A stretch of 20,000 nucleotides of DNA from an uncultured virus (IMG/VR IMGVR_UViG_2061766007_000557) (IMGVR_UViG_2061766007_000557); one strand, 5' to 3'; shown: positions 1 to 18,871, counted from the first letter of the stretch. Notes: generated by a model from the letters alone, not told the origin. Numbers and translations are program-made.

Positions 1-348
1 TTTATTTAATTTATAAATTAGTTCATCACGAATTTTATAATATTCTTTTATTTGTTTTTCCAATTCTTTTATTTTAGTTGTATATCGTTCAATATGTAAT
101 TCAGGATTTTTCAACAATTGAGTATATAAAGTATTCAATTGTGTATATTGTGTTTTAAGTCCTTTATTAGTATTTTCCAAATCATTTACTTTCTTTTTGA
201 GTTCTTCAATTTCTTTTTCATATTTAGGACTTAATCCTTCTTCAAGTTCTGCTATATATTCTTCATCGGCAGCATGTTGTTGTTTAAGTTTACTAATCAA
301 AGCATCAGCTGCTTTTAATTGATGATTTTCTGTTAAATGTAGTTCCAT
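1..348 (-). CDS. Hypothetical coiled-coil protein, partial (runs off window start)
   Basis: Not in the ORF track. Manual translation from ATG at 348 gives MELHLTENHQLKAADALISKLKQQHAADEEYIAELEEG..., 116 open codons to position 1, rich in E/K/L. Confidence 0.8.
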   Translation of the reverse strand, partial: MELHLTENHQLKAADALISKLKQQHAADEEYIAELEEGLSPKYEKEIEELKKKVNDLENTNKGLKTQYTQLNTLYTQLLKNPELHIERYTTKIKELEKQIKEYYKIRDELIYKLNK

Positions 349-382
349 AATATACACAATTAAATAAATTATACATATTGGC

Positions 383-1570
383 TTATTCATCATCAGGTCT
401 TATATGTTCAAATACTGGCAAAGTAGGAACATTATCCTGTGAATAATAAAAGAATTTACAGGTAGCCATTTTTCCTATAAATTCATCTTTATGTTGTAAA
501 TAATAAATTCGAGTTGAAGTATCACATGCTGGTTTTGCAGCAAACTCTTTATTTTCTTTTGTTTTTAAAACAAAACACATATCTTCATCTCGAAGTCCTT
601 CTCTTACACCAACAATTTCAAATTCTTCTGTTTGAAATTCTTTCATTTTTATTAAGTACACTCCAGATCTTTTTCCAATACCGTATTCTTTATCTGGATT
701 TCTAGCGCATAATCCTTCAAAACCTTCGCTTACAAATTTATCATGCCACTTTTTAATAACAAGTTTACCTGATAATTTATAATGCTCACAGATTATAATT
801 TTAGAATCTTTTGAAAAATTATCTTTTAAAGACATTAAATATTCATATCTATCTTTAAAAGGCTCCGTACTTATATAATCATATATCCAATATTCCAATT
901 CACCACATTCATCTTTCCATTCTTGCTGTCTAGCAAGCCCAGAAATGCGTTGTAATGGCCAATCTGATCCGTGATGATATAATTCTCCATCAAGAATAAG
1001 ATCAGGCTTCTGAGAGAAGATTTTTAAAAGTTCTGGATTTTTTCTTAAATGTTCTGTTGCAGAATCATATGTACCACCGCCTCTACTAGCAGTATGAATT
1101 TCTCCATTTTTATAATACATAAGACAACGCACACCGTCCAATTTTCTTGAACAAAACCATTCTCTTTCAAAAACATTAGCTCCTAAATCATCACAACTTT
1201 TTGCAAGCATTGGTTTTGGAATTCCACTAGAGTCTGTATTATAAGAATTACCTAAAAATATTTTTAAATCTTCTTCAGAAAATTCAGAATATTTCTTTTG
1301 TGTAAAAGAAGATAGTTTCTTATATCCACTATCTAAATAGTTTTTAAGATAACTTAAAAATTGTAACGTTGCTTGTTCAGCTGTACTTCTTTTTGCTTTT
1401 CCTTCTGTAATTACAATTTCTGGTTGAATTGATTCTTTTCCGCCGAATTGATTAGTTATTCTTTTAATAGTATATTTATATAGAATTTCATCTTTCTCAA
1501 GATGAAGATAAACATGCTGAATTTTATTTTTATTGTTTAATTTAATTAAATGTTCTTCCCTAATTAACAT
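383..1570 (-). CDS. lig: ATP-dependent DNA ligase with N-terminal extension
   Basis: PMLA motif, motif I KLDGVRC (KxDG), ILDGELY, YDY, FEGL and LIKMK, plus a C-terminal OB-fold (VPTLPVF..IR). Confidence 0.93.
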   Translation of the reverse strand: MLIREEHLIKLNNKNKIQHVYLHLEKDEILYKYTIKRITNQFGGKESIQPEIVITEGKAKRSTAEQATLQFLSYLKNYLDSGYKKLSSFTQKKYSEFSEEDLKIFLGNSYNTDSSGIPKPMLAKSCDDLGANVFEREWFCSRKLDGVRCLMYYKNGEIHTASRGGGTYDSATEHLRKNPELLKIFSQKPDLILDGELYHHGSDWPLQRISGLARQQEWKDECGELEYWIYDYISTEPFKDRYEYLMSLKDNFSKDSKIIICEHYKLSGKLVIKKWHDKFVSEGFEGLCARNPDKEYGIGKRSGVYLIKMKEFQTEEFEIVGVREGLRDEDMCFVLKTKENKEFAAKPACDTSTRIYYLQHKDEFIGKMATCKFFYYSQDNVPTLPVFEHIRPDDE

Positions 1571-1776
1571 GGTTCATAATATTCTATACCTATTGCATAA
1601 TCAGTATTATATTTATCTGGTTTATCAAACACATTTGAAAAATACGAATTTACTAATTGCAATACTAATGTTTCATCTGGATACATTGGATGGATACTAG
1701 GTTCTAGTATTCCTTCCCAATGTTCTACCAAATATGTATTAGGATCTATAACACAAACTTTAGTTTTATATTTCAT
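1564..1776 (-). CDS. Hypothetical protein (70 aa)
   Basis: Fills the gap between dut and lig and overlaps the lig start by 7 nt. Confidence 0.7.
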   Translation of the reverse strand: MKYKTKVCVIDPNTYLVEHWEGILEPSIHPMYPDETLVLQLVNSYFSNVFDKPDKYNTDYAIGIEYYEPC

Positions 1777-1778
1777 AA

Positions 1779-2228
1779 TTATTTTCCTGAACTACCGAAT
1801 CCACCAGTACCTCTTGAAGTTTCAGATAAAGTATCAACTTCTTCAATTTCTACTTGAGGAATTTTTACTATTACAAATTGACCAATACGTTCGCCTGCTT
1901 TATATGGAGCGCAATCTAAACCGCAAAACATTTTACTATCACGAAGTTTATATCTAAATTGAATTTCTCCACGATATGTTGCAGGATCAACTAAACCAGG
2001 AGAATTAGGTAAATATGCATCAGTTTTAGTATTACTACTTCTTGGTAAACACAATAAAGCATATCCTTCTTCCATTTCACATGCCAATCCTGTATGATAT
2101 ATATAAACATCGTGCTCTTGATCGTATTCTACATCTATTGCAGTTACATCAAGACCAATATCTCCAGGATGTGCTTTGAACGGAATTACTGCTTTAGAAT
2201 CAAGTTTCTTAAATTTTAATTTTGTCAT
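1779..2228 (-). CDS. dut: Trimeric dUTPase
   Basis: Motifs GLDV, PRSS, GLVDPATYRGEI, ERIGQ and C-terminal RGTGGFGSSG. Confidence 0.96.
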   Translation of the reverse strand: MTKLKFKKLDSKAVIPFKAHPGDIGLDVTAIDVEYDQEHDVYIYHTGLACEMEEGYALLCLPRSSNTKTDAYLPNSPGLVDPATYRGEIQFRYKLRDSKMFCGLDCAPYKAGERIGQFVIVKIPQVEIEEVDTLSETSRGTGGFGSSGK

Positions 2229-2566
2229 GTTTGAATTATAAATTGTCTTGTGAAAACTTCTTTTTTATTGTCATTAAAATCTATAGATTCACATTTCAAC
2301 TCTGTATAATTTGAAAATATTGTTATTGTGTAAAGAAATTCGATATCACCGTGAATTCCAGATCCATCAAATTCAAATACACCATCAGTTACTAACTCTG
2401 TAATAATATTTTCAAATGATAATTTACTTTGTGATGCTAAAGTCTTAAGAATATATTCTAATTCTATTCCTGCACCACTAGGATATCCGTCACAATGACG
2501 ATAAGCACAAACCTGTCTTCTTCTAACGTCAGTGTCTTGAATTATTACATTACATCTTGTACTCAT
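2225..2566 (-). CDS. Hypothetical phage protein with MSTR...YRHCDGYP motif
   Basis: Probable start is ATG 2566, overlapping the nrdG stop (ATGA). Its stop overlaps the dut start (ATGA). Confidence 0.75.
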   Translation of the reverse strand: MSTRCNVIIQDTDVRRRQVCAYRHCDGYPSGAGIELEYILKTLASQSKLSFENIITELVTDGVFEFDGSGIHGDIEFLYTITIFSNYTELKCESIDFNDNKKEVFTRQFIIQT

Positions 2567-3030
2567 TCGTTCCAAAATTTATAAGTTATATCTTTGAATT
2601 CTCCAGTTTCCTTGTTTATTTGATATAACTTTTGATTAGTAGTTTTAGAATCTAATCCTCCTAATTCTTTCTTATAAGAGCCATATTTATAGTAATCTAA
2701 TTCAACCATCATTATAGGATGTAAAACATCTTCGCCAGAATACCATGCTGTTTTTATAGATCCTTTATATGTTTCATTTATAAGAAATATAAGTTCTTTT
2801 ATATACCCAATATCAGAATCCCCTCCCATAAAACAAATACATGTTATTCCTTTATTTTGTTCGATTAGACGCAATAAAGTTGATCTAGTTAGATCTTCTC
2901 CGATATCTTGCCAAAGTTCTTTAGAATGACAATCTGGGCAATGTATAGGACATCCTGATATATTTATACACAAAGTGACTTCGTCTGGTATTTCCCTAAA
3001 TGTAACTTGTGTTGTTGTATATTTTAACAT
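2563..3030 (-). CDS. nrdG: Anaerobic ribonucleotide reductase activase (radical SAM)
   Basis: CPIHCPDC (CxxxCxxC), CFMGGD, LDYYKYGSY...GGLDSKTTNQ. Probable start MLKY at 3030, just after the upstream stop. Confidence 0.92.
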   Translation of the reverse strand: MLKYTTTQVTFREIPDEVTLCINISGCPIHCPDCHSKELWQDIGEDLTRSTLLRLIEQNKGITCICFMGGDSDIGYIKELIFLINETYKGSIKTAWYSGEDVLHPIMMVELDYYKYGSYKKELGGLDSKTTNQKLYQINKETGEFKDITYKFWNE

Positions 3031-3031
3031 A

Positions 3032-3313
3032 TTACCTTTTAAAAATTTTCCATTTTTCCGGGTTTTCGTCAATATCTTTTAGCATAGTTTCTCCGATATC
3101 CCTGCAGATAATAGTAAAAGGATTATTAGATATTATACATAAATTCCCAATTGAGCATACATCTGGATCAGCAGGATTACCAAAATTATTATATTGTTCT
3201 TTAAATTCAAACTGAACTTGAATAGATTTATCAGAGATTTTATTTAATTTATCAATTAATTCTTGTACTGTCATTCTAATACTAATTCTAGCAATTAAAC
3301 TTTCAACTATCAT
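3032..3313 (-). CDS. Hypothetical protein
   Basis: ORF-track frame. Start taken at ATG 3313 (ATGA overlap with the upstream small ORF); the downstream MTVQELIDKL start is an alternative. Confidence 0.65.
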   Translation of the reverse strand: MIVESLIARISIRMTVQELIDKLNKISDKSIQVQFEFKEQYNNFGNPADPDVCSIGNLCIISNNPFTIICRDIGETMLKDIDENPEKWKIFKR

Positions 3314-3426
3314 AAATCTATAGATAAAGTAAAACGTGGCCACCCGTACTTATCTACAACAACAATTGGAAATACTCTGTATTTATTAGGAATTTCAAAA
3401 TATTTATACCATTTATAGTCAGACAT
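3310..3426 (-). CDS. Small hypothetical protein (38 aa)
   Basis: Manual translation MSDYKWYKYFEIPNKYRVFPIVVVDKYGWPRFTLSIDL*. Overlaps the trx end and ends in an ATGA overlap with the next gene. Confidence 0.5.
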   Translation of the reverse strand: MSDYKWYKYFEIPNKYRVFPIVVVDKYGWPRFTLSIDL

Positions 3427-3718
3427 TGAATTTATCCTCCAACATTTGAACGGTCATTAAACCGCTATGCCTCCACAATTCTTCATTATCTTGTTTACAA
3501 ATAATTGTAGGCAAACTCATTATTTCAAACTGCTCAGAAATAGATTCGTTTTCATCTACATTAATTGTATATATTTTAATTTCAGGATGTGCATCTGCAA
3601 ATTTATGTAGATTATTTTTAGTTATTCTACACGGTCCACACCATTCAGCCCAAAAATCCAATAGTACAGGTTCTTGCCCTATTACTATTGGATTATTTTC
3701 ATTTACTTCTATAATCAT
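3419..3718 (-). CDS. trxA: Thioredoxin
   Basis: LLDFWAEWCGPC active site, INVDE, and cis-Pro SLPT. ATG 3718 lies in a TAATG overlap. Confidence 0.95.
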   Translation of the reverse strand: MIIEVNENNPIVIGQEPVLLDFWAEWCGPCRITKNNLHKFADAHPEIKIYTINVDENESISEQFEIMSLPTIICKQDNEELWRHSGLMTVQMLEDKFNV

Positions 3719-3936
3719 TACCAACTTATTTTAACTCTAGCTTCTTCTCCTTGTCCTACAACAACAGAATATCCTGCTTGTTTAACTTCGTCTAAAAGAC
3801 TAGAATCAAGAGTATCTTTGTTAACAAAAATATAATTTAATCCTAATTCTCTAGCATTATCCATAAATGCTTGTAAATTGACAAGTTGTGGATATTTAGG
3901 AGATTTAAGATTTTTAAATACTTCTACATGTGTCAT
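3718..3936 (-). CDS. Hypothetical protein (72 aa)
   Basis: Overlaps the prfB 3' end and the trx start; ends KISW. Confidence 0.7.
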   Translation of the reverse strand: MTHVEVFKNLKSPKYPQLVNLQAFMDNARELGLNYIFVNKDTLDSSLLDEVKQAGYSVVVGQGEEARVKISW

Positions 3937-5020
3937 ATAAAATATAAGAATTAATTAATTCGTCTAAGTTTCCATTTAATACTGAATAAACATCTGTTGT
4001 CTCATAAGAAGTTCTGTGATCTTTAACTCGTTTATCATCAAGTATGTAACTTCTTATTTGATTACCCCATTCTATTTTCTTAGATTCTCCTTTTAATGCT
4101 TGTTCTTCTTGAAGTCGTTTTTGTTCTTCAAGTGCATAAAGTTTACTCTTAAGGATCCTTTTAGCATTTTCTTTATTTTGAGGTTGATCTCTAGATTCAG
4201 TATTCTCTATAACTATTTCATCAGGAAGTTTAGTAATAGGATTTATGAATTTATAATGTAATCTAATACCAGACTCTACTTTATTGACATTTTGTCCTCC
4301 TGCTCCGGAAGATCTAAATGTATCATAAGTTATATTACTTTCGTCTATGTTAATAGTTATAGAATTATCTATAAGAGGGATTACGGACACACTTACAAAA
4401 GAAGTCATTCGTTTACCTTGTGCATTAAACGGACTTATACGAATTAATCTATGTATACCATTCTCTGATTTAAAATTTTTATATCCATATTCAGTATCAA
4501 CTATAAAAGTAATCGATTTAATTCCTGCTCGACTATCTTTTTGCTCATTTTCAATTAAAATGTTATAATTTTTAGAGGAACAATACTTAAAATACATGTC
4601 TCTTAACATTTTAGCAAAATCCTGAGCTTCAACACCGCCAGCACCAGACTCTATTTGAATAACCGCCGGTAATTTATCTGTATTTTTTTCAGGAATAATT
4701 ATTTGATTTAGTTGATTTAAATTAGAATATAAAAACTGGAGTTCCCTGTCAATTTCTTCTTTAAAAAGATCTTCATTTTCATTCATTATTTGTAAATCAT
4801 CTATAGATTTTTTACAAATATTATATAGTTCAAGCTTAGTTTTTACTTGTGTATATTCTTTTAATAAACTTATTGATTTTTCTTTATCTTGATATAAATC
4901 AGGGTTATTAATTAATATTTGTAATTCAATAAGTTTATTATTTAAATTCGATAAATCTAATATTGAAGAAATTTTAGAAAAATCTCTTCACATATCAGAA
5001 AATTGTATATTATTTATCAT
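3914..5020 (-). CDS. prfB: Peptide chain release factor 2 (368 codons) with an in-frame UGA at codon 11 (4988-4990)
   Basis: GAGGVEAQDFA, ENGIHRLIRISPF (SPF, the RF2 specificity motif), GAGGQNVNK (GGQ), WGNQIRSY. ATG 5020 overlaps the nrdD stop and is in frame with the 4786 ORF (78 codons upstream). The extra segment resembles the RF2 N-terminal domain. Confidence 0.93.
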
Positions 5021-7197
5021 ACTTCTTTAGAATAAATTCTTTTCTGAGCTTCAATATATCTATCTCTACTATAAGCACTCAATGGTCTTAAATATCCAAT
5101 AATTCTTACCCAATAATCAAGATTTTTACTTTTACAAATAGGACATTCTTGAATAGGAGCATTTACTACATGACCACAATCTTTACATTCACTCATCGGA
5201 ATATTAAATGTAAAGTAAGTCACTCCATTAGCTGTTGAATAATCAAGAAGCTTTAAATATTGTTCTTTGGATAAATGAGCATCTAAATGAATATGTGCTG
5301 CTTGGCCTCCATCACTATATTTAGCAATTTCTTTTCCGTGAAGATAAAGTTTATCTAATACAGATATTTCTGGATCCCACTGTTTAAAGAAATAACTAGA
5401 ATAAAGATTTTGATCTTCAGGTACGACGTATCCATCTTGTTTATCCCAATTATAGAATTTTACAGAAAGAGACTCTCCGGGCACAGCTTCAGAGTTAAAC
5501 AAGAAAGGTCTTTTCTTATCATGGATTGCATGAAGTTTATTTTGTTCTTTGACTGTACCGAGAATAAACTTTAAGAAATCAATATATTCTTCATTCTTAT
5601 TTACTTTCATTCCTAAGAATTCAGCAGCTTCACAATATCCAAGTAATCCTATTGTAGAATAAAGTTTACTCATTTTAATATATCCAGCATTAGAAGATGC
5701 AAACATACCTTGATCTTCAACATCATAAAGCATAGTTTTATATGCTATTTGATATTTATATACTCTATCAAGAATATTACAGAAGTAACGTTTGAATTCT
5801 TCATGAACTTTTCCATCATCTTCTTTCCAAATAGCAATAGCATCTTCTTGAGTTGCTAAACCGTCAATATTAAAATAGTTTTGAACTATTCTGTTAATAT
5901 TTAGAGTAATAACATTACAAGAACCTGTCATTACACCTTGTAAACCATTAATAGAATTAAATGTATTTTCTTGCATTTCGTTCAAAACTCGACAACAACT
6001 AGCAAGCGATGTAGGATTATCACTATTATAACAGAAGAAACTACTTCCTTTTGCCCATTCTTCAGCACAAAGCTCTTTATATTCCTTATCGATTATATCT
6101 TTTCCATCATTTACCATTGCAAAAGTAGTAACAGGAAATGTTAAAGGTTTAATGAGTCTAAGCTCTCTGTGTAATTCAAGAAATATTCTTTGTAAGCAAT
6201 TTACTGCATCCCATTCTGCTTGAGTTCCATCTGGAAAATAAAAATCCTTGAACATTGCATCAAAATAAGTATGATCATAAATAGAAATATTACTAAATGG
6301 ACTATTATATGATCTATTGCCTGCAGGTTGATTAATGCCCCAAATGAAATGTTTCATTGCTTTTATAATTTCATGCTTAATAGTTTTATCAGGTAATACT
6401 TTTACTTCCTCAAGTCTTTCCCACCACTTATCGCCAAAATCTTTTTTTGCATAATAACTAAATGCAATAAGATATTCAGATAATGCAACAGCTCCTTTAC
6501 ATTGGGCAGATAATAAGAATACAAGATTTGTTACTTGCCCACTAAATGAACGTAAATCATCTGGAGCGCTGGGAGTGATTCCGTCAATATTACCACATCC
6601 TTCAGTCATTAAAGGATATAAACTATCAGCTTGACAATAGAATTTTAAACAAGGAGAACTTGCTTCATCATGAACATATATAATATGATCATCAAGATCT
6701 TTTATATATTGTGATGCAACTTCAGGATACATTTCCTGAAGTTTTTTCTTCATTCTTTGTCTTTGAATAAGTCGATTGGTAGTTTTATAAACTTCTCCTT
6801 CAAGATTTGCTACATTTTTGAGTGTAACATTTGCATTCGCATCTGTCTCAGATGCAGTAGATGCATTATCTGAAGAAGCTGCATATTTATCCATGTAGTC
6901 AATTCTTTCACGAATAAATGTTGCCTCTTTATGTTTTTCTCTATAAAGAATAAAAGCTTTGGCCGCTTTAAATTCTTGTAAACTCATTAAAGCGTCCTCA
7001 ACTAAATCCTGAATTTCTTCTACTGAAACTTCCATCCTTCCATCATACTCCTGCTGTGTTAATGTTCCAATAACACAATCGAATACTTCATCTGAAGAAT
7101 GATTGGTTTTTACTTGCTTAAAACAATTTTCAATTGCTTTTTTAATTTTTTCTGGTTGAAAATCAACCATTTGTCCGTCTCTTTTAATTACTTTCAT
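5017..7197 (-). CDS. nrdD: Anaerobic (class III) ribonucleoside-triphosphate reductase with ATP-cone
   Basis: N-terminal MKVIKRDG ATP-cone, FYC and ASCCR cysteines, CKDC...CPIC Zn site, RIIGYL glycyl-radical motif. Confidence 0.96.
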   Translation of the reverse strand: MKVIKRDGQMVDFQPEKIKKAIENCFKQVKTNHSSDEVFDCVIGTLTQQEYDGRMEVSVEEIQDLVEDALMSLQEFKAAKAFILYREKHKEATFIRERIDYMDKYAASSDNASTASETDANANVTLKNVANLEGEVYKTTNRLIQRQRMKKKLQEMYPEVASQYIKDLDDHIIYVHDEASSPCLKFYCQADSLYPLMTEGCGNIDGITPSAPDDLRSFSGQVTNLVFLLSAQCKGAVALSEYLIAFSYYAKKDFGDKWWERLEEVKVLPDKTIKHEIIKAMKHFIWGINQPAGNRSYNSPFSNISIYDHTYFDAMFKDFYFPDGTQAEWDAVNCLQRIFLELHRELRLIKPLTFPVTTFAMVNDGKDIIDKEYKELCAEEWAKGSSFFCYNSDNPTSLASCCRVLNEMQENTFNSINGLQGVMTGSCNVITLNINRIVQNYFNIDGLATQEDAIAIWKEDDGKVHEEFKRYFCNILDRVYKYQIAYKTMLYDVEDQGMFASSNAGYIKMSKLYSTIGLLGYCEAAEFLGMKVNKNEEYIDFLKFILGTVKEQNKLHAIHDKKRPFLFNSEAVPGESLSVKFYNWDKQDGYVVPEDQNLYSSYFFKQWDPEISVLDKLYLHGKEIAKYSDGGQAAHIHLDAHLSKEQYLKLLDYSTANGVTYFTFNIPMSECKDCGHVVNAPIQECPICKSKNLDYWVRIIGYLRPLSAYSRDRYIEAQKRIYSKEV

Positions 7198-7226
7198 ATA
7201 CTATATTTTTAATGTGAAATAAAGTA

Positions 7227-7258
7227 CAAAGATAGTAAAAATTTTTGATAAAAACAAG
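7227..7258 (-). promoter_or_regulatory. Bacteroidota primary-sigma-type promoter upstream of nrdD
   Basis: Minus strand CTTG-N20-TATCTTTG matches the -33 (TTTG) / -7 (TAnnTTTG) consensus, about 30 nt upstream of the nrdD ATG in a 112-nt intergenic gap. Confidence 0.75.
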
Positions 7259-7309
7259 TAAATTTAAAAATTTTTAAAAATTATTACTATCCTTTACTTA
7301 AAGTAATTA

Positions 7310-7702
7310 TTAGAGGTTGAACTCTCGATCTACATTAGTTTCAGCAATAAACTGTTCCTTACGATTACATTCTTTTATAAATGTTGAAAAATTATCATAT
7401 AATTCGTTAGAAATTTCTATTCTATCAGTAGTACCATTTCCGCCAATTGTAAATCTATCTACAACAGCTAATGGTTTTTTACGTTTCCGAAACCATTCTC
7501 TACCGAATAACCATTTAGAATTATATTTGTATAAATATATTGCGAGACAATTTTTGTTTTCAATAGATTCAATACGTATAGAAACAGACATTTCTTTATC
7601 ATCTCTTTTATCACACCATGAATCTGTTTTATAAACAGGTGTATCATAAGCGTTTAGTCTCAATGAATCAAGTACTTTTTTTAATTGTTCCTCAGTAATC
7701 AT
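7310..7702 (-). CDS. Hypothetical protein (130 aa)
   Basis: ORF with ATGA overlap to the upstream gene; no recognised motif. Confidence 0.75.
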   Translation of the reverse strand: MITEEQLKKVLDSLRLNAYDTPVYKTDSWCDKRDDKEMSVSIRIESIENKNCLAIYLYKYNSKWLFGREWFRKRKKPLAVVDRFTIGGNGTTDRIEISNELYDNFSTFIKECNRKEQFIAETNVDREFNL

Positions 7703-8457
7703 AACTTTAGCAGTCTTTTAACTAGTATAGTTTTTTCAAATTTATTAATAATATCTTTATCATCTAATCTAATCTGGCTAACAAATGTTCTATATATATC
7801 ATACATAGAAATCTGTTTAGTTTCAGGAATATAAAATATAGAATCTTTATCTTTTATTAACAATTTATAAACATCTACTGGCAAAGATGTTGCTAATTTT
7901 ACTTTTCCACCATCATTAGTAAATGAACCATCTAATGCATAATCAACCCATTCTCCTAAAATTTTAATCATTTTGTCTCTATCAATATACGATTTTTTAA
8001 GTTGATTAATCATTAATGCATTATTATCAGTCTTTTCTAATAATGATTTTATTCCTGTATAATCAAGCGGAACACCAGATTCTAATTTTTGTAATAATAT
8101 AGCATCTTGATCAAATGTAATTATATTTCCATCTTGATCAATATCTGCTATATAAAACTTAGCGATTGGAGTTTTTACATCAAGCCCATAGATCATTCCA
8201 ACTACTTTCTGGCAATCTTCTTTAAAATAAAAAGATTTTGGTAAGATGGCTTGAATATGAATTCTATTATAAACTAGATCTGGTTTTCCGTTTGTAATAG
8301 ACATTTGATCAGGGGTCTTTACTTGACATATAAATTCAGGATTATATTGTTGTAATCTATTGATAAAAGGTTCAATATATGCTTTTGCTGACAAATATTG
8401 AGATCCTTTTATAATAGTATCTTTTCCTTCCAATAAACTTTTAAGTTCTTCTACCAT
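7699..8457 (-). CDS. Conserved crAss-like phage protein (possibly DUF932-related)
   Basis: LLEGK...AYIEPF...QVKTPDQ...GMIYGLDVKTPIAKFY resembles, from memory, a conserved crAss-like replication-module protein. Confidence 0.6.
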   Translation of the reverse strand: MVEELKSLLEGKDTIIKGSQYLSAKAYIEPFINRLQQYNPEFICQVKTPDQMSITNGKPDLVYNRIHIQAILPKSFYFKEDCQKVVGMIYGLDVKTPIAKFYIADIDQDGNIITFDQDAILLQKLESGVPLDYTGIKSLLEKTDNNALMINQLKKSYIDRDKMIKILGEWVDYALDGSFTNDGGKVKLATSLPVDVYKLLIKDKDSIFYIPETKQISMYDIYRTFVSQIRLDDKDIINKFEKTILVKRLLKL

Positions 8458-8459
8458 AT

Positions 8460-9092
8460 TTATACTTCTGCATCTATTCCAAAAGCAATAAATTTTCCTT
8501 CTTTAGTGTTTGCACCTGGTGTATAAACACTGTAAGCAGCAATAGGATTTATGTCTGGAACTTTTACAGCAAGAGCAGAATAATCTTTGTGATTCTTTGA
8601 TGTTAGTTCTTTCATTCTTTGAATAGCTTCTGCTTTAGAATCACATTGATCAACAATTCTTCCCATTTTTACAATACTAACATCTATTTCATCAGCACCT
8701 TCTATTTCATCACCATATTCATCGATTGTTTTTGTAGGGAAAGAAGATAATTCTAGTTCATCTTCTCTAATAAAATAAACGAAAGACCACTCTCTAGTAG
8801 TTTCTGTTTTATTATTAATTATAGTATAAGGTCGCTTTCTTATATCTGCTATGGGATTTTCTAAAACAATATATAAACCGTATCCCGGTTGCAATTTGGT
8901 TTTTTCCATTAATTGCTGAGATGCAAATCTCTTAAATTCAGTTGTTCCAGGGAATGGTTTTCCAGATTTAATCCAGGCTTGTGTAGAGTTACATCCTTTA
9001 ACAATACTACAGTCTGGATTAAACTTTAAATTTTTGAATGCTTCTTCTTTTGTAAATCCGGAGCATTCTTTTATTTTTAATATATCCGTCAT
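8460..9092 (-). CDS. Conserved hypothetical phage protein
   Basis: 210-aa ORF (GFTKEEA...STQAW...RKRPY...YTPG...GKFIAFG) packed between its neighbours. Confidence 0.7.
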   Translation of the reverse strand: MTDILKIKECSGFTKEEAFKNLKFNPDCSIVKGCNSTQAWIKSGKPFPGTTEFKRFASQQLMEKTKLQPGYGLYIVLENPIADIRKRPYTIINNKTETTREWSFVYFIREDELELSSFPTKTIDEYGDEIEGADEIDVSIVKMGRIVDQCDSKAEAIQRMKELTSKNHKDYSALAVKVPDINPIAAYSVYTPGANTKEGKFIAFGIDAEV

Positions 9093-10021
9093 AATCCTAA
9101 TTTATTTTGTTTTAAATTAAGATAATTTTTACATTCAGTAGGATTTTTAATTTGTTCAACAACATCATCAATATTTTTACCCATAACTGCTGTAGATATA
9201 AATACTTCTTTTAGTTCAGCAAATGAAAAACCTTCTGTTTTATTAGAATATTCTTCTAATAAATCATCATTAATACCTTTTTTCTTTAAGTATTCTTTAC
9301 GTATTGATTTATTAGGAACATCTAATACAAAATGCATATCTATTCTAGAAGGTCTTAATAATGCATCAGATAATTCAGAAGTATTATTTGATGTCATTAA
9401 TACAAGATGGTGTTCTACTGAATTTTTTCCATCAAGAAAATCTAAAAATTGAGAATCATCTCCATTGTTAGCTTCTATTAATTTATCAATATCTTCAATA
9501 ATTGTAATAATCGGACGTTCTTGTTCAATTTTTCTAATAACAGGATTTAAAGAATCAAATAATATATTAAAATCTTTAAGATTATTTACTAGAAAAATAA
9601 GTCCATCATTATCAAGTAATTGTTTTATCAATAAACTTATTATTGCACTTTTACCTGTGCCTGGTCTACCAGATAATAAAATTCCTCTTTTATGTGAAAT
9701 ATTGTGTTGTTTATATACATCTTTCTTATTCCAAAAATCATTTACTTCGTTTAGTATCTTAGTAGTATAACTTTCAGAAAATGTAAATAATTCATCAGTA
9801 TTAATATTTGAAGGAATAACTTTATATTCTTCACGAGAATAAGTTACTTTATAAACACCAGATGGAATTTTATCACAAGTTTTTAAATTAACTGCAGGAA
9901 CATATTCAGATCCATAATCAAGCCAAGTAGCATACTTAATTTCTGATAAATCTTTTTTTGCTTCAACAGTTTCTATGATATCTATTAAAGGTAAAGTTTC
10001 TAAATCTTCTTCTGTATACAT
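9089..10021 (-). CDS. AAA+ ATPase (classical clade)
   Basis: RGILLSGRPGTGKS Walker A, IIEDID Walker B, FLDG, TSN, LLRPSRID second region of homology, GFSFAELKE. Confidence 0.9.
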   Translation of the reverse strand: MYTEEDLETLPLIDIIETVEAKKDLSEIKYATWLDYGSEYVPAVNLKTCDKIPSGVYKVTYSREEYKVIPSNINTDELFTFSESYTTKILNEVNDFWNKKDVYKQHNISHKRGILLSGRPGTGKSAIISLLIKQLLDNDGLIFLVNNLKDFNILFDSLNPVIRKIEQERPIITIIEDIDKLIEANNGDDSQFLDFLDGKNSVEHHLVLMTSNNTSELSDALLRPSRIDMHFVLDVPNKSIRKEYLKKKGINDDLLEEYSNKTEGFSFAELKEVFISTAVMGKNIDDVVEQIKNPTECKNYLNLKQNKLGL

Positions 10022-10022
10022 A

Positions 10023-10415
10023 TTAAAATGGAAGCCATCCTGAAATTAATTCTTTAATTCGATCTTTAACCTCTGAGGAATTAGAATAGTTAGATGGCTT
10101 TTCTATATCATTTGTTCCCCAAATAAGATCATCACATACTATACTTAGTCCAGACAAATAATCATTGTCTGCTTCTTCTAAAGACATTCCTACAAGTATA
10201 TATTTATATAATACGTCATAGGAATTCTTAAAAGTTTCTGGCACTCTTTTCTTCAATTGTTGAGTTAAATAAGCAAGTAATGTTAATAACTCAATTTTAT
10301 TACTAAAACTTTGAGAAGTATTAGTCTTTGAAGAAAAATACGAACTATATAAAAATCGTTTCGTATCTAAGTTTATATTATTTAAATCAATTGTCCCACT
10401 CGACTGTTTGCTCAT
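10023..10415 (-). CDS. Hypothetical protein
   Basis: ORF-track frame. Probable start MSKQ at 10415, giving a short overlap with the upstream nuclease. Confidence 0.7.
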   Translation of the reverse strand: MSKQSSGTIDLNNINLDTKRFLYSSYFSSKTNTSQSFSNKIELLTLLAYLTQQLKKRVPETFKNSYDVLYKYILVGMSLEEADNDYLSGLSIVCDDLIWGTNDIEKPSNYSNSSEVKDRIKELISGWLPF

Positions 10416-11445
10416 ATCCGTATAACTCATGAAAAGCAACCCTACAAATTAATTCTTTAAATTCTTTTGCTCCATATTGAATATAAGAATTATTTATAGG
10501 AAATACTTTTGATTTATTATTACCAGTAGTTTCAACTACAATAACATTACATTTATAATTATAATCAGTTAATCCTAATACTTGTTCGCAATACATTTGT
10601 AACATCATCAAATATACAGAAAATTGTCTCATATAATGTAATTTTTGCATACTACCATTATACCAAGATCCTTCATATATACCTCCCATAAATGTTTCAC
10701 AAGGTTTAGATGTAGTTTTTAAATCATTTAAATAAATTATTTTATTTTCATGATCAATTATTATACTATCCGCTTTTCCTTTAAATGGAAGTGTAATTTT
10801 ACCACCATTTGATAATGTTACATCCAGATCAACAAAGAAAGCAAATTCATTAAGAAATTGTTTAGGAATTAATAAACTTGGAGCTAATAATTCTTTAACA
10901 TCTTTATTTGTATTCAATGAATGTAATGCAATTTTACAAGTATCAAGTTGTGATTTTGGTAAAACACGAACTACTTTTTTAGGATTATAAAATTTATTAT
11001 TTACTAACTTTAAATAATAGTCTAGTCCATCTTTTACAACAGATCTAAATCTATTTAAAGTCATTTTTCCAGAATAATAATCTGCTTTAGAGGAAGCAAG
11101 ATCAATTGATTCTTGAATAGTTTTACCTTGTTTTCTAAATTTATAAAAACAATCTATAAAATATCCTTTTTTAGCAGATGGTTTTCCTTCATAATCACTA
11201 AGTTCATATTCATCAGAACTTAAAAATTGTTCATGAATACTTGAACCTAACTCAAGCGAAACATCATATTTAAATGGTATTCCGTTGGTATATTTTTCTG
11301 GTGAACCATCTTCTAGTGGATCTATATATTTTAATTTAGAATTACTTATTCCTGGACTTTTGAAATAAATTTCATCGGATATTTTTGCTCCTTTTATATT
11401 TAAAAATTCAACTGAACATTGATTTGCATTCAACTTTATTCCCAT
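10387..11445 (-). CDS. PD-(D/E)XK nuclease (DUF3799/RecE-like exonuclease)
   Basis: ISNSKL, LGSSIH, FKGKAD...LNDLKTT, YMRQFSVY. Confidence 0.82.
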   Translation of the reverse strand: MGIKLNANQCSVEFLNIKGAKISDEIYFKSPGISNSKLKYIDPLEDGSPEKYTNGIPFKYDVSLELGSSIHEQFLSSDEYELSDYEGKPSAKKGYFIDCFYKFRKQGKTIQESIDLASSKADYYSGKMTLNRFRSVVKDGLDYYLKLVNNKFYNPKKVVRVLPKSQLDTCKIALHSLNTNKDVKELLAPSLLIPKQFLNEFAFFVDLDVTLSNGGKITLPFKGKADSIIIDHENKIIYLNDLKTTSKPCETFMGGIYEGSWYNGSMQKLHYMRQFSVYLMMLQMYCEQVLGLTDYNYKCNVIVVETTGNNKSKVFPINNSYIQYGAKEFKELICRVAFHELYGYEQTVEWDN

Positions 11446-12422
11446 TTACCATTCATTTTAAGTTGATAATATTTATCTGCAATATCTTGATATTTCAAAC
11501 TATTAACTCTATATTCTGTTTTTATATGTTTATTATGAGGTCGTGTAATTAATAAAGCTGGTAATCCTTTATCTATACATGCCTTAACATTAGAATAAGA
11601 ATCATCTATTAAAATATCACAACGTCCTTTTATATATTTAGCTTTATTAGCAGATTGTAAATATATTTGATAGATAGGTCTTAACGGTAAATTTAATTTT
11701 GAAAAGCAAGATTTTGTATACTCTTTACTGTTTATTCTTTTTGTACAATAAAGCTCAGGAATAAAATCAGGTTTTTCAATTAATTTAAGATTAGACCAAA
11801 ATTCCCTATCATTTCTAAGTTTAACAACTTGTCTTGTAATTTTAGATTCAGTCATTTCAGAAAGTTTACATTTAAATCTTTTTTCATGAGCTCCTCTCCA
11901 ATCAACAAGTGTATCATCTATATCAAGAGCAATTCTTAACTTTTTTCTGCCATAAGATATACTATTTTGAACATACTTACAAAATATTGCTTTCTTAATA
12001 TCATTTTCTAATCGTTCAGGAGTTATAAAAGAAAGTAATTTATTTTGAGCTGCAATTTGATCAGAAGATAAATTAGAATTACTAAAAACTTTATACCTAA
12101 TCAAACATATATTGTTATCTGGACAAAAAACAGTATTTTCCCAATGATCTCGCTTTTTAATGTCTTCAAATTTACAACCATCACCAAAATTTATAGGACG
12201 ACTGTGTTGAATTCCATCAAACTCTATTAGAAATGTTTTACCATTATATACAAATCCAAAATCAGCTCTTCTTAATTTATTATCAAATTTACCAAATTTA
12301 ACTTCTCTATTATAAAAAAAGTTTAATTTATTACTTACTTGTTGTAAAATATTCTCGATATGTTGTTCACCTTTAGTAGAGTTTCCTCCATTGAGTGGTA
12401 ATTTAAAATCGTCAATATTCAT
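11436..12422 (-). CDS. Fusion of an N-terminal DUF559/Vsr-like endonuclease and a C-terminal HAD 5'(3')-deoxyribonucleotidase-like domain
   Basis: N-terminal GEQHI...RADF...LIEFDGIQH...CLIR; C-terminal RIALDIDDTL (DxD), K, LIDDS, RPHN. Confidence 0.8.
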   Translation of the reverse strand: MNIDDFKLPLNGGNSTKGEQHIENILQQVSNKLNFFYNREVKFGKFDNKLRRADFGFVYNGKTFLIEFDGIQHSRPINFGDGCKFEDIKKRDHWENTVFCPDNNICLIRYKVFSNSNLSSDQIAAQNKLLSFITPERLENDIKKAIFCKYVQNSISYGRKKLRIALDIDDTLVDWRGAHEKRFKCKLSEMTESKITRQVVKLRNDREFWSNLKLIEKPDFIPELYCTKRINSKEYTKSCFSKLNLPLRPIYQIYLQSANKAKYIKGRCDILIDDSYSNVKACIDKGLPALLITRPHNKHIKTEYRVNSLKYQDIADKYYQLKMNGKWE

Positions 12423-12832
12423 TAATATAATTTTTTAATTAAACTATAGAAAAAGTCTTTAGGAAGAATTGCATATTCTCCAGCAGAGACTTGTTTCTTT
12501 TCTTTAGCTTCTTGTGCATTCCAAATTATAACAAGAGGTTTATCTTTTTTACCAACTTCAGAATTTATTTTTTTAATGGCAGGAACAGCTTGTGTGCATT
12601 TTATTTGAGTATAAAATGGTAAAATATTATCTGGATCTGCTATATCTATTTTTGCATCATCCAATTTTTTGCTCTCAGATCTAGATGTACATAAATTATC
12701 ATTTCCAGTAATTTCTTTTAACTCAGATACAATGCGTCTTTCGTACGAATTTCCACGACGTTTATTTCTTTTTCCAATAGAAGATTTATCAGAAGATCCA
12801 GAAATGTTTCGTTTCCCTGATTTTTTCATCAT
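12422..12832 (-). CDS. Holliday-junction-resolvase-like PD-(D/E)XK nuclease
   Basis: KRRGNSYERRIV (G..ER helix), KIDI, YTQIK; size typical of the family. Confidence 0.7.
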   Translation of the reverse strand: MMKKSGKRNISGSSDKSSIGKRNKRRGNSYERRIVSELKEITGNDNLCTSRSESKKLDDAKIDIADPDNILPFYTQIKCTQAVPAIKKINSEVGKKDKPLVIIWNAQEAKEKKQVSAGEYAILPKDFFYSLIKKLY

Positions 12833-13832
12833 CAAATATTGTCTTTAATTCATTAATGGACTCGTTATAATCTTGTTTTCCAACATATTTATATAAATCA
12901 GATATATCCTTTGCATATTTTCTTTTTATAAATATACATCTAATAAACGGATACTCTTTTTTATATTTATGAGCACTTTTTATTCCTGGCAAATCATTAT
13001 CTCCTAAATATAATATGTTAGAAGCAAGTTCGTGAATTTTAGACATTTGCCTATTTGATATAAGTATCGTTTCACTACAAGGAGCAATAGCATTAATTTT
13101 AGATTCGTACAAATTCAATAAGTCTTTCATTGATTTTGTTATTATTAATCTATCATTTAAATTGCTTGGTAATTGTTTTGCTCCTTGAATCATTGTACTA
13201 GTCCAATTAGATAAAAATCGATAATCTTTCATTTGTGGAAAATATATTCTCCACAATTCAATACCATCCTTTTTACCACCATAATATCCAAAAATATTAC
13301 TTCTTGCGCTTGATGATTTATAATAATTACCATTTAAAAATACAGATTTACACGAATGAACTTTAAACTTCTTAAGAGTTGACTCATGAATACCAAAAGA
13401 TTCCCACCATTTTAATTCATATGATTTAAATGGTTGATCCTCTATTTGAATAACTGTTTCTAACTTCTCTTCTATTTTAGTATTCGACTGTTTTATTTTA
13501 GTAAGAGGCCTAAGAGAAGTTTTTTCTATAAGTTTAAAATCTTCTGCAATAATTTTTAAAGCATCGTTATATGTACAATTATTTAAATACATTACTACAC
13601 TTATGAAATTACCATGAAATCCTATTCCAAAATCGTGAAATATTAAATCACCTTTTTTATTTCTATAAAAACTAGCAGTTGGTTTGTGATCATTCCTTAA
13701 TGGACTTATAAGGAGTCCTTTTTTAACAGGGACTCCTAAATAAGTACTCATATATGTTTCTTCACTATTTTTACTTAAAAGAAATTCCTTTGTTATTTTT
13801 GGTTCATTTTTAGGAATTTCAAATAAGTTCAT
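12789..13832 (-). CDS. DNA primase (crAss-type, DnaG/TOPRIM-like)
   Basis: Degenerate N-terminal Zn-finger-like region (SPLRNDHKPTASF...FHDFG), TOPRIM-like IITKSMKD and GDNDLPG, AKDISD. Confidence 0.85.
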   Translation of the reverse strand: MNLFEIPKNEPKITKEFLLSKNSEETYMSTYLGVPVKKGLLISPLRNDHKPTASFYRNKKGDLIFHDFGIGFHGNFISVVMYLNNCTYNDALKIIAEDFKLIEKTSLRPLTKIKQSNTKIEEKLETVIQIEDQPFKSYELKWWESFGIHESTLKKFKVHSCKSVFLNGNYYKSSSARSNIFGYYGGKKDGIELWRIYFPQMKDYRFLSNWTSTMIQGAKQLPSNLNDRLIITKSMKDLLNLYESKINAIAPCSETILISNRQMSKIHELASNILYLGDNDLPGIKSAHKYKKEYPFIRCIFIKRKYAKDISDLYKYVGKQDYNESINELKTIFDDEKIRETKHFWIF

Positions 13833-14491
13833 CAAAACGTAAAGTCAATATTTGCAGTTGGTTGTTCCTGAGCAGGCATTTCAAATGTATCAGAAGATGT
13901 TGGTGTTGCTGTTGCAGCATTCTGCATCTTAGTTAATTCCTTACTTGTCCAGAAAATATTATCACCAATAAAGTTAGTAGACATATAAAATCTTCCTTCT
14001 TTGCTGTAATTAGCAAAATACGGAAAAATTGCTTCTCCTTTATTGTTCTTAATTAATTTGATTTTAGTCGTTTTTCCAATACCAGGAGTAGTCGCTTGAA
14101 CCATAAGATTACGCAATCCATCCCAGGTAGAAGCATTCAATTTCTGTTCTCCACTATCAATTTTAGCAGCAAGTGCAGGATTTACAGCATCAATAAGATG
14201 TTTAAATTTATACATCATTGCTTTAAAATTAGATGGTTGCGAACCATAAGGACCTTGTCTATCTTCCATGTCAGCATCAGTAGGTTCCCATATAGTTTCT
14301 GTAAAATATCCATCATTATTAGAGAACTTAATATCTAATACTTTAAATTTCTTTGTTGGATCCTGTTTACCTTCAATATCTCTTGCTTCGCATCCATCAA
14401 ATTTAACTTCATGAATAGCATTACCTTCAAGTTGTTTACGCACACTACTTTGGCTTGAACCAGCGGTCATTCCAAAATCAAAATCCATCAT
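13832..14491 (-). CDS. Putative single-stranded DNA-binding protein
   Basis: Located next to the primase, with a low-complexity A/T/S linker and an acidic/aromatic C-terminal tail (NIDFTF). Confidence 0.55.
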   Translation of the reverse strand: MMDFDFGMTAGSSQSSVRKQLEGNAIHEVKFDGCEARDIEGKQDPTKKFKVLDIKFSNNDGYFTETIWEPTDADMEDRQGPYGSQPSNFKAMMYKFKHLIDAVNPALAAKIDSGEQKLNASTWDGLRNLMVQATTPGIGKTTKIKLIKNNKGEAIFPYFANYSKEGRFYMSTNFIGDNIFWTSKELTKMQNAATATPTSSDTFEMPAQEQPTANIDFTF

Positions 14492-14877
14492 AATTTATAT
14501 TCTTTAAATTTTTCTATATTGTAATTAGTATCTGTAACTATTGATAAGTCTAAATAATTCTCATTTATAGCTTTATCTACATCTGTATATACAACAAATT
14601 CTTGGTCACCTTCTAAAAAGAAAGTGCCAAGATCATCATATAATGTAAATTTTGTACCATATTGTTGTAAAAAATCCCTTTCTTGTCCTTTAAAAATAAA
14701 CGAATTAGATTTAGATAATAAATTACCAGAATTATCCTTTTTAATTACTGGTTTCATATTACCATCTAATTTTCCATAAACTATAGCAATTCTATCTCCA
14801 GGTTTTGCTTCTAAAAGTTTAATTAAATTTTCACTAAGAATTGCTTTTCCTTCTTCTAATATTAAATCGTAATTCAT
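14488..14877 (-). CDS. Hypothetical protein (possible AbrB-like N-terminus)
   Basis: ILSENLIKLLEAKPGDRIAI pattern; ATGA overlaps at both ends. Confidence 0.65.
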   Translation of the reverse strand: MNYDLILEEGKAILSENLIKLLEAKPGDRIAIVYGKLDGNMKPVIKKDNSGNLLSKSNSFIFKGQERDFLQQYGTKFTLYDDLGTFFLEGDQEFVVYTDVDKAINENYLDLSIVTDTNYNIEKFKEYKL

Positions 14878-15623
14878 TTCTTAAGAGACGGGTATATATT
14901 TTCCCAATGAGTTATTAATGTACCGTCGTCTTGTTTTTCAGACAGAAGAATCGTTTTACCTTGAAGATGCTCTGGTCTAGCACTACATATAATAGATGTA
15001 TTGTCTCCAAAATTTACATATACTTTATTTTCTTCTGCATTTCTATATAAAAATCCAATAGCATCAGATTTTGCAGAAAGAATATTTGATATTTTTCCAG
15101 AAAGATCTAATGTTCTAACATTAAGTTCTTCTTTATTATTATCAGTTAAAGTTTTGTCTTTTGTATGACCAACAAGAATTACATTTAATCCTGTACTTTC
15201 AAACCAACCAATAATTTGTTGCATTGCAAGTCTTAAATATAAATATCCTGCTCCATTTGGAAGTTTCAAAATATCAGTAGGATTCTTATATTGAAAGGCT
15301 TTCCCCATTGGAGTGTCGACATATAGCTTACACGCTAATTCGCAAGACATCTCTTCAAGTGCAGTAACTGTATCTAAAGCTACAAATTTAAATTCGTGTT
15401 TTCCTTCTTTTAATTCTTTAGCAATATTATATAAATCGTATATATTGTTAGCTTTTACAATATAACCACTTACATAATTAGATCCATTTTCCATATCAAC
15501 AATCAGACATCCATCTAATTTAGATAATGCAGATGTTTTTCCTCCTTTTGGACTACTGAAAATTATTAGATTTTTAGGATCGTTTGTACTAATAGACGTC
15601 ATTTTTGTAGGAAGTAATCCCAT
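14874..15623 (-). CDS. P-loop ATPase, AAA_24/Sak4-like
   Basis: FSSPKGGKTS Walker A, VDMENG, VALDTVT Walker B, ILVGH, SDAIGFL. Confidence 0.82.
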   Translation of the reverse strand: MGLLPTKMTSISTNDPKNLIIFSSPKGGKTSALSKLDGCLIVDMENGSNYVSGYIVKANNIYDLYNIAKELKEGKHEFKFVALDTVTALEEMSCELACKLYVDTPMGKAFQYKNPTDILKLPNGAGYLYLRLAMQQIIGWFESTGLNVILVGHTKDKTLTDNNKEELNVRTLDLSGKISNILSAKSDAIGFLYRNAEENKVYVNFGDNTSIICSARPEHLQGKTILLSEKQDDGTLITHWENIYPSLKK

Positions 15624-15624
15624 A

Positions 15625-16659: not shown

Positions 16660-17279
16660 ACTAGTTCAGATGTTTTAAATTCACCGTGATCACCATCTCT
16701 CATTTGTTGATACATATCCCATTGTCTTTCAGCAATAAACTGACATATTCCATTTTGTATAAGATTGTTATCTCTAGCATAATCAAGAATTTCTAATACT
16801 TCTTGATGTTTTTCAGGATCAAATTTAATAGCTTCTCCATAAGCAAAACACATTTCATCTAAAGATTTATAAAGTTTTGTTATATTTCTTAGACTAAATG
16901 GTCTTCCATTTACATAAGTAAATGCAGGATAACTATCAAACAATTGAATTCCTAATTCTTGAGAATGTTGGATAAATGATTTTGTTACAATTTTATTAAA
17001 ATCAACATCATTAGGATTAAATATTTCACCTTTTTCAGGAATTATATATGATTTATTGATGATGCCTTTATCACGTAGACTCATCAATAGTTCTCTAATT
17101 TCTTTTCCTAATTTGCATTCTCCAAAATATTTATGTAAATATTCTGGATGCTCGTCCTGAGCAAACCAAATTAACTTCATTAAAAATAATTCATCGGAAG
17201 TTAATTGGTATTTAATCATAAAATCAATTTCTCTTTCAATACTTAATTCTAAATTTTTCATAGGCATGAATAATTTCAC
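16656..17279 (-). CDS. Conserved crAss-like protein; putative replication initiator or helicase loader
   Basis: wHTH-like LLMSLRDKGIINKSY; coupled to the DnaB gene by an ATGA overlap. Start is GTG 17279 or ATG 17267/17261. Function inferred from position. Confidence 0.55.
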   Translation of the reverse strand: MKLFMPMKNLELSIEREIDFMIKYQLTSDELFLMKLIWFAQDEHPEYLHKYFGECKLGKEIRELLMSLRDKGIINKSYIIPEKGEIFNPNDVDFNKIVTKSFIQHSQELGIQLFDSYPAFTYVNGRPFSLRNITKLYKSLDEMCFAYGEAIKFDPEKHQEVLEILDYARDNNLIQNGICQFIAERQWDMYQQMRDGDHGEFKTSELV

Positions 17280-17338
17280 AATTACTCATACTAATTATAG
17301 CATTTATTGCGTTTAGTAAGTTACCTGTAATTTAGAAT

Positions 17339-18804: not shown

Positions 18805-18871
18805 CGATTCTGTTATCGTTAGGCTTTTTATCCTAACTTCTTATTATTACTAATAAGTCCCGCGTATATTT

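Follow-up and report, generated by a model that had tools for sequence, protein, structure and literature searches.

The RF2 gene of a phage from the bovine gut metagenome is, on comparison with its relatives, a candidate for a frameshift-free variant of prfB autoregulation. Its frame carries an in-frame UGA, the stop codon specific to RF2, only ten codons after the start, and the best explanation for the retention of this codon appears to be read-through that is sensitive to RF2 activity and probably inserts tryptophan, an interpretation that we hold with a confidence just short of even. The +1 frameshift through which bacterial prfB genes regulate their own expression is a textbook case of recoding.

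The RF2 frame and its genomic setting

The window, i.e., the whole 20-kb stretch of DNA that was analysed, holds the replication and nucleotide-metabolism module of a cattle-gut phage and has a G+C content of 27.6%. Its genes, without exception on the minus strand, include those for DNA ligase, dUTPase, NrdG, thioredoxin, RF2, NrdD, an ATPase, an exonuclease, a primase and Sak4, along with a DnaB-like helicase, a second helicase and homing endonucleases; neither late genes nor tRNA genes were found within the window. The full RF2 (prfB-like) frame occupies 3914..5020 on the minus strand and comprises 368 codons, including a TGA at codon 11 (4988..4990, minus strand; next base A), up to a TAA stop at 3916-3914. 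Translation confirmed two claims of an earlier, sequence-only reading of this DNA, namely that the ATG at 5020 overlaps the nrdD stop and that the TGA is the sole interruption of the frame. The frame begins MINNIQFSDM*RDFSK, with the TGA in the context GAU AUG UGA AGA, and stays open for 357 codons beyond it. The product is colinear from residue 1 with bacterial RF2 proteins of 366-371 aa and contains the PCRF (PF03462, E 2.9e-43) and RF-1 (PF00472, E 2.6e-31) domains. Translation and alignment also locate the SPF tripeptide of RF2-type stop-codon recognition (residues 196-198, in the stretch RISPFNAQ; 4427..4435, minus strand) and the GGQ motif of peptidyl-tRNA hydrolysis (residues 241-243, in SGAGGQNVNK; 4292..4300, minus strand). 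RF1 has PxT where RF2 has SPF.

The start codon (5018..5020, minus strand) forms an ATGA overlap with the stop of the upstream gene nrdD, which encodes the anaerobic ribonucleotide reductase (5017..7197, minus strand; stop TGA at 5019-5017, with TAA immediately next), a layout typical of translational coupling. Its Met aligns with the first Met of the bacterial homologues, and codons 1-10 as a whole match the N-terminal end of the nearest bacterial RF2s, sharing M1, I2, Q6 and D9 with the consensus MITxEQLKD (in its fuller form MITxEQLKDxQxR). This match argues that the ATG at 5020 is the real start, at least ancestrally. The TGA itself falls in a column that is variable in bacterial RF2 (Q/E/V/N/S) and is occupied by W in P0124, a homologue from a divergent lineage considered below.

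Past the TGA, codons 12-78 (4787..4987, minus strand) encode part of helix 1 through helix 3 of RF2 domain 1, with P0124 colinear throughout. As the sequence-only reading had noted, an ORF listing gives no in-frame ATG, GTG or TTG in this stretch, the next being the ATG of codon 79 (4784..4786, minus strand), at which gene callers start a 290-aa ORF and at which the proteins P0001, P0121 and P0122 begin. Domain 1 is thus fully encoded, and it is reachable only across the TGA. The AlphaFold (AF2) model of the protein has a mean pLDDT of 69.6, with blocks over residues 11-80 at 78-89, and places domain-1 helices at residues 4-20, 23-37, 40-44, 46-81 and 87-108, codon 11 lying in the middle of the first. 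On this model, a protein of 290 aa starting at Met-79 would lose helices 4-20, 23-37 and 46-81, that is, three of the four long helices of domain 1.

The classical bacterial solution is absent from this gene. The window's RF2 contains no CTTTGA; the place of the shifty cassette, at codons 20-22, is taken by ATA TTA GAT in frame 0, again in agreement with the sequence-only reading, which had seen no slippery site there. No Shine-Dalgarno-like AGGAGG or AGGGGG precedes the TGA, where the sequence reads ATACAATTTTCTGATATG. A frameshift or a hop is therefore out, the slippery site being absent and the downstream frame being frame 0. Bypassing of the kind seen in gene 60, another type of recoding, was also rejected, as it would skip conserved codons. 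A scan for promoters and terminators around the RF2 gene yielded nothing above shuffled sequences.

The stop codons of the window bear on how the TGA could be decoded. Its 27 minus-strand genes end in TGA (14) or TAA (13) and never in TAG, and the codon-11 TGA of RF2 is the only internal stop in their 6,444 codons. Since it is the sole such stop and sits in the gene of the very factor that decodes UGA, its occurrence goes beyond chance. Decoding of TGA as sense by host or phage (code 4 or 25) was rejected for this module: TGA terminates those 14 genes and has no other internal occurrence, back-up TAA or TAG codons stand not significantly closer behind TGA stops than behind TAA stops (median 5 versus 11 codons, Mann-Whitney p 0.32), the other genes would gain just a few codons, and RF2 falls within a Bacteroidales clade.

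More specialized decoding, in which a UGA-reading tRNA (with anticodon UCA, or an altered tRNA-Trp) encoded outside the window would time the synthesis of RF2, is in our estimate very unlikely. Such phages do carry suppressor tRNAs, and their codes differ within a single clade, according to the available part of a preprint on them (10.1101/2021.08.26.457843); the W at codon 11 of P0124 would also suit such a tRNA. Against it, the same preprint part links RF2 to the recoding of TAG and RF1 to that of TGA, and the window combines frequent TGA stops with the lack of any other internal TGA. The sequence-only reading had proposed a search for a tRNA with a UCA anticodon; within the window, this search returned no tRNA of any kind.

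The joint occurrence of an RF2 gene and TAG avoidance is described there as a signature of the TAG-recoded Lak and Agate phages (10.1101/2021.08.26.457843, available part). Like these, the window derives from an AT-rich gut or rumen phage with a Bacteroidales-type RF2 in a standard-code early or replication module and no TAG stops (0/27), a combination that matches the code-change module of TAG-recoded phages. That the window's own phage recodes TAG is a guess.

Conservation of the interruption and of the codons beyond it

The 90%-identity cluster of the window's RF2 protein consists of four variants, none of which has been called from codon 1. One is the window's own 290-aa call, found on two contigs. 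P0001, 95% identical and likewise of 290 aa, occurs on four contigs of up to 166 kb; P0122, 89% identical and 287 aa long, begins at Met-79; and P0123, 96% identical and 334 aa long, starts at codon 35, where it has a start codon in place of the window's Ile. An uninterrupted relative of more than 53% identity is absent from the 7,991 scored homologues. At the nucleotide level, Logan contigs from three other studies cross the TGA site, namely X4 (4865-5043, 9 differences), X6 (4924-5040, 3 differences) and X7 (4610-5043, 14 differences), all of them without gaps and with no change at 4988-4990 among the differences listed. Divergence amounts to 2.6-5.0% in records that cover the N-terminal part versus 0.8-9.3% in the gene core, so that the catalytic part is evolving no more slowly than the stretch that precedes codon 79. 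Searches for the DNA of close relatives returned nothing among viral contigs (with a single protein query), best matches of 51% among metagenome contigs and likewise 51% among genome contigs, and, in a phage collection, only Lak phages besides bacterial-like records. Taken together, the relatives appear to share the interruption, the persistence of the TGA itself being read indirectly from the lengths of the gene calls and from the differences listed.

A search with the first 137 codons of the RF2 frame brought up a single protein, P0124 (JGI, 146 aa, from a 918-nt contig), which equals P0122 at 77 of the 77 residues of their overlap and hence represents the N-terminal portion of the lineage that has diverged most. 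The protein starts M-W-R-D-F, its Met falling at codon 10 and its Trp at codon 11, and over codons 12-78 it is identical to the window's frame at 42 of 67 positions (37% diverged), colinear, gap-free and stop-free. When neutral substitution was simulated to equal amino-acid divergence, the frame remained open in 5.3% of 3,000 runs (P 0.053). Further, the 25 replacements sum to +21 on BLOSUM62, compared with -9.7 +/- 8.9 in stop-free neutral runs, of which 0/2,000 reached +21. This comparison indicates that codons 12-78 are under protein-level selection and, being conserved as protein, they must be entered by translation. The sequence-only reading had proposed to look for purifying selection over codons 1-78, and the constraint detected pertains to the part of that stretch beyond the TGA.

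Codon 11 of P0124 itself could be TGG, which as a sense codon in a relative would be the kind of finding that the sequence-only reading had listed against itself, or it could be TGA translated under code 4; Prodigal in its metagenome mode can translate AT-rich contigs under table 4. The second option is favoured, because P0122, which represents the same lineage through another pipeline, starts at Met-79 and so needs a table-11 stop upstream, and W occurs in P0124 only at codon 11, which leaves no other candidate position for that stop. A TGG/TGA polymorphism is equally allowed. The C-terminal fragment of nrdD from the contig of P0124, from which the code of its gene calls could be learned, was not present among the 120 of 213 matches listed. 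Either way, the residue at this codon is Trp, the amino acid inserted by natural misreading of UGA in the cases that the available parts of two papers describe (PMC5289835; PMC7918605).

These comparisons speak directly to another account, namely that the gene is inactive or truncated, with only the 290-aa product from the ATG at 4786, or none, being made while the upstream region decays, or that the TGA is an assembly error. The gene callers do give products of 287-290 aa, and the branch that leads to this RF2 is very long. Nevertheless, we judge the account extremely improbable in light of the conservation of codons 12-78 as protein across lineages, the gap-free N-terminal region without raised nucleotide divergence, the cost of three of the four long domain-1 helices, and the recurrence of the same truncated call in independent assemblies. 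Exclusive production of the 290-aa form, the outcome that the sequence-only reading had set down as fatal to it, is disfavoured on these evolutionary grounds, and so is the random decay that it had thought a poorer fit, the RF2 being otherwise intact and its interruption shared.

The TGA also lies within a predicted RNA hairpin (4956..4999, minus strand), in which an 8-bp outer stem and a bulged G are followed by a 12-bp inner stem that starts at the U of UGA and is closed by the loop UCU. A 66-nt fold of this region reaches -17.4 kcal/mol (z -4.35), with none of 200 shuffles equally stable, and falls near the 1-2 percentile among 3,987 66-nt segments sliding along the 20 kb, where some 8-10 loci are equally strong. 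The codons of the inner stem (R-D-F and I-S-S) are conserved in P0124 and those of the loop differ; one base pair of the hairpin is lost through a synonymous variant that two runs show. Rfam contains no family for it, the one match being sub-threshold and attributable to chance. The hairpin was rejected as a stimulator of read-through since its 5' arm includes the UGA and, from this position, would be melted with the UGA in the A site; downstream of the UGA, no stimulatory structure was found.

The hairpin is of interest for a different account, in which translation starts or restarts at a non-canonical codon just past the TGA (for instance codon 17, an AUU, or codon 20, an AUA), with codons 1-11 serving as a leader ORF for coupling and RF2 being shorter by about 16 residues. 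The want of ATG, GTG or TTG in codons 12-78 despite protein-level selection there fits this account, a 10-codon ORF that stops next to a strong hairpin, together with the ATGA coupling, resembles leader-ORF layouts, and I17-S18-S19 is conserved in P0124. However, R12-D13-F14, right after the stop, is conserved there too, codons 1-10 still match the RF2 N-terminus, and starts at AUU or AUA are unsupported in this phage or its host; we regard such initiation as quite unlikely.

Bacterial ancestry and other phage RF2 genes

The best bacterial homologues of the window's RF2 come from Paludibacteraceae and other Bacteroidales; they are 46-53% identical to it, 366-371 aa long, and align from their own Met-1. 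CTTTGA was looked for in 185 related loci, each matched over more than 290 residues of the query; it occurs near the 5' end in 97 and is absent from 88. All nine frameshift-type loci that were inspected have the same cassette, AGGAGG (or GGGGG) TAT/TAC/TGT CTT TGA C following ...ALRRYL, which is the Bacteroidota arrangement (RRYL*, CTT TGA C) that the sequence-only reading had named. The canonical cassette is hence present in close Bacteroidales relatives of the phage gene.

A quick IQ-TREE phylogeny of 77 rows (21 from phages plus, for either bacterial type, the 28 loci with the highest similarity, five redundant Lak-like rows having been dropped) sets the window's RF2 on a branch of 2.7 changes per site within the Bacteroidales clade (SH-aLRT 99). 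Its position relative to the unshifted and frameshifted clades and to the remaining phage groups is not settled by this tree, which also does not group it with Lak, L089 or L084/L085. Lak and L089 form a second phage clade, and L084/L085 a third, which is sister to a frameshift-type Paludibacteraceae gene. The presence of three phage groups implies that Bacteroidales RF2 genes have been taken up by phages at least three times. The sequence-only reading had the UGA replace an ancestral +1 frameshift. This is not supported, given the even spread of the cassette among related loci, the unplaced branch, and an N-terminus of the window's RF2 that resembles the unshifted type.

For recurrence among phages, 36 IMG/VR loci were surveyed, of which 21 are readable at the N-terminus (match from query residue <=37; several are near-duplicates of Lak) and 15 were left out. 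An in-frame stop after the start is present in 1/21 of the readable loci, L085. The RF2 of Lak phages, 45% identical to that of the window, has neither the frameshift nor an early stop in the 3/3 loci read, and L084, the sister of L085, is also without a stop. As to the conservation of the TGA that the sequence-only reading had asked about, the calls are truncated in 4/4 variants of the cluster, the three Lak loci and L084 lack the early stop, and P0124, for its part, shows W.

L085 lies on a 262-kb phage contig (G001) and reads AAG TGA TTT at RF2 codon 16, where L084, on contig G002, reads AAG CGA TTT. With a dN/dS of 0.089 between the two (dS 0.33), the RF2 of L085 is not decaying. Both contigs read TAG as Gln, a call that rests on the codon-substitution pattern: they have 48 conserved TAG-TAG pairs, and the dominant mismatch is CAA/CAG versus TAG. 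In G002, ARAGORN reports a single tRNA(cta) along with a tmRNA-like call; the Rfam tRNA model finds no tRNA in G001 or G002. General recoding of TGA in G001 was rejected, the excess of in-frame TGA falling mostly in spurious off-frame ORFs; the in-frame TGA codons that look real are those of RF2, of a neighbouring gene and perhaps of one more. That neighbour, a conserved gene with a dN/dS of 0.079, has likewise undergone a change of CGA to TGA. The RF2 of L085 shows no comparable local RNA structure (z -0.95), and its TGA is followed by U, which the available part of PMC5289835 gives as a low-read-through context. L085 hence resembles the window in that its phage RF2 gene carries an early in-frame TGA and is otherwise strongly constrained by purifying selection; it differs in the position of the TGA, in the next base, in having a sister with CGA, and in its independent origin (46% identity, separate clade). 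The early TGA thus recurs in phage RF2, and its occurrence in L085 fits a tolerated leaky nonsense codon as well as it fits regulation.

Such a tolerated nonsense codon, arisen from TGG, CGA or AGA and devoid of any regulatory role, is also conceivable for the window: basal leakiness would suffice for an accessory gene, and the codon would have spread by drift or hitch-hiking. The step from CGA in L084 to TGA in L085, together with the second such step in the neighbouring gene, shows how it could arise; P0124 may carry TGG, and the Lak phages manage without a stop. In-frame stops are, moreover, widespread in otherwise conserved bacterial genes, according to the available part of PMC7918605. 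What makes us consider this account rather unlikely is that the interruption is common to four variants down to 89% identity, with the N-terminal domain diverged by 37%, and that the window and L085 agree in having TGA as the stop, in placing it no later than codon 16, and in the gene affected, which encodes the factor that recognizes this codon, an unlikely outcome for random hits. Early nonsense hits are the most survivable ones, which softens the argument from two early TGAs.

Read-through as a proposed control on RF2 synthesis

On the favoured interpretation, RF2-sensitive read-through, ribosomes would, through coupling to the nrdD terminus, start at the ATG at 5020 and would meet the UGA after ten codons. 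There, RF2 of host and phage would free a decapeptide in competition with a near-cognate tRNA, most likely tRNA-Trp, that reads through, and full-length RF2, probably with Trp at codon 11, would arise only from read-through. With termination by RF2 competing with read-through at this codon, RF2 output would fall as RF2 activity rises, so that synthesis would go up when RF2 is limiting and down when it is abundant.

Several published observations give this scheme a footing. The leakiness of UGA followed by A, and its misreading by tRNA-Trp, which the sequence-only reading had invoked, are documented for E. coli in the available part of PMC5289835. The context favourable to read-through, UGA with a next base other than U, is found in the window (UGA A) and not in L085 (UGA U). 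In B. subtilis, UGA read-through rises from 6% to 19-54% with prfB mutations, and overproduction of RF2 is toxic in both E. coli and B. subtilis (PMC7918605 and PMC12421855, respectively, in the parts available). Given the toxicity of unregulated RF2 in these bacteria, regulation would suit a phage that ends half its genes in UGA.

Counting against the proposed loop, host RF2 is present from the start, and the early stop is absent from the RF2 of Lak and of L084. Natural read-through usually amounts to a few percent, so the yield of RF2 would be low.

A broader proposition is that phage RF2 has evolved frameshift-free prfB feedback at least twice independently, in the window's clade at codon 11 and in L085 at codon 16, with the early UGA decoded as Trp only when total RF2 is limiting; this would match the supply of RF2 to heavy use of UGA stops and avoid RF2 toxicity during the switch to TAG as sense. 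We put it forward tentatively, as something that we would sooner doubt than accept.

The likeness to the bacterial prfB frameshift lies in the placement of an early, RF2-specific UGA in the RF2 gene itself, such that completion of the protein competes with RF2 termination. In contrast, the downstream frame in the window is 0 rather than +1, there is neither CUU-U nor AGGAGG, and the event would be read-through instead of slippage. The position of the UGA differs as well, being codon 11 in the window, 22 in the Paludibacter type and 26 in E. coli (PMC12421855, available part).

A second point of comparison comes from another phage. The A1 read-through protein of Q-beta is a product of programmed UGA read-through by tRNA-Trp. 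There too, a full-length phage product needs near-cognate decoding of a leaky UGA-A, and misreading of stop codons in coliphages is cited in the available part of PMC5289835. However, the Q-beta stop ends a complete protein, and read-through provides a minor C-terminal extension, whereas the stop in the window falls at codon 11, with only the read-through product functional. Moreover, in the window the stop is contested by the very protein that the gene encodes, so that a feedback loop would be closed.

In the portions of the literature at our disposal, we found no description of an in-frame UGA without a frameshift in phage or bacterial prfB; Table S2 of the preprint on phages that carry release factors might bear on the matter (10.1101/2021.08.26.457843, available part). 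Likewise, the presence or loss of the frameshift cassette is all that a survey covering more than 12,000 bacterial genomes describes in its available part (PMC12421855).

If the proposed read-through control is true, one point mutation would be enough to re-establish the feedback principle of RF2, and the early UGA would amount to a simple natural sensor of RF2 activity. For the stop-codon-recoded phages of the gut and rumen, it would add a layer of control to the poorly understood machinery by which they switch their code.

The in-frame UGA and the contigs around it

A strong AT-rich hairpin lies on the minus strand at 4956-4999 in the RF2 gene (3914..5020, minus strand). The first base of its inner 12-bp stem is the U of the UGA that stands in frame at codon 11 (TGA at 4990-4988). 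In two runs from other studies, X4 and X6, a synonymous variant at 4964 (T>G on the plus strand) disrupts a U-A pair of this hairpin.

The contigs of relatives that span the RF2 start all end at 5040-5043. In the neighboring nrdD gene (5017..7197, minus strand), within 5040-5300, the conserved part encoding the C-terminal zinc ribbon (5075-5215) shows a pile-up of read depth contributed by contigs of other organisms. A 154-nt contig from a further run (X7, record 17) links the 3' end of RF2 (4061-3944) to about 33 letters similar to 5034-5002, with three extra letters between the two parts at the junction (window 3944/5034). As its depth is only 2 and one side is short, this contig probably does not represent a tandem or circular RF2 copy; more likely the C-terminus has diverged or AT-rich sequence has matched by chance.

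Stop codons and homing-endonuclease-like genes in the window

Across the window (1-20000, minus strand), 14 of the 27 genes terminate at TGA and the remaining 13 at TAA, with TAG used by none. Many of the TGA stops belong to ATGA overlaps with the start of the following gene, and tandem TGA TAA stops close both nrdD (5017) and a primase-like gene (12789). The replication module also houses minus-strand homing-endonuclease-like genes of the HNH and GIY-YIG-like types (11436-12422 and 18872-19894), the former seemingly fused to a C-terminal part resembling 5'-3' deoxyribonucleotidases.

Recoding in the sister phages and bacterial prfB cassettes

Two sister phage loci, L085 and L084, lie on megaphage fragments (G001 and G002, with CheckV completeness of 53% and 41%, respectively), in both of which TAG is read as Gln. 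For G002, ARAGORN calls a tRNA(cta) at 167827-167902 and a tmRNA-like element at 3290-3686; the Rfam tRNA model has no match in either contig. Besides RF2, the L085 phage has a second CGA>TGA gene, a conserved plus-strand gene of unknown function (L085 1855-2331; L084 1439-1909), in which the change falls at about codon 43, where the L084 counterpart encodes Arg. The dN/dS of this gene pair is 0.079.

Among bacteria with related RF2, the Bacteroidales prfB frameshift cassettes (L004-L083 and L145-L224) carry a perfect AGGAGG 5' of CTT TGA C, even though Shine-Dalgarno pairing is little used for initiation in the phylum to which the Bacteroidales belong. The Paludibacteraceae contain both shifted and unshifted versions of prfB.
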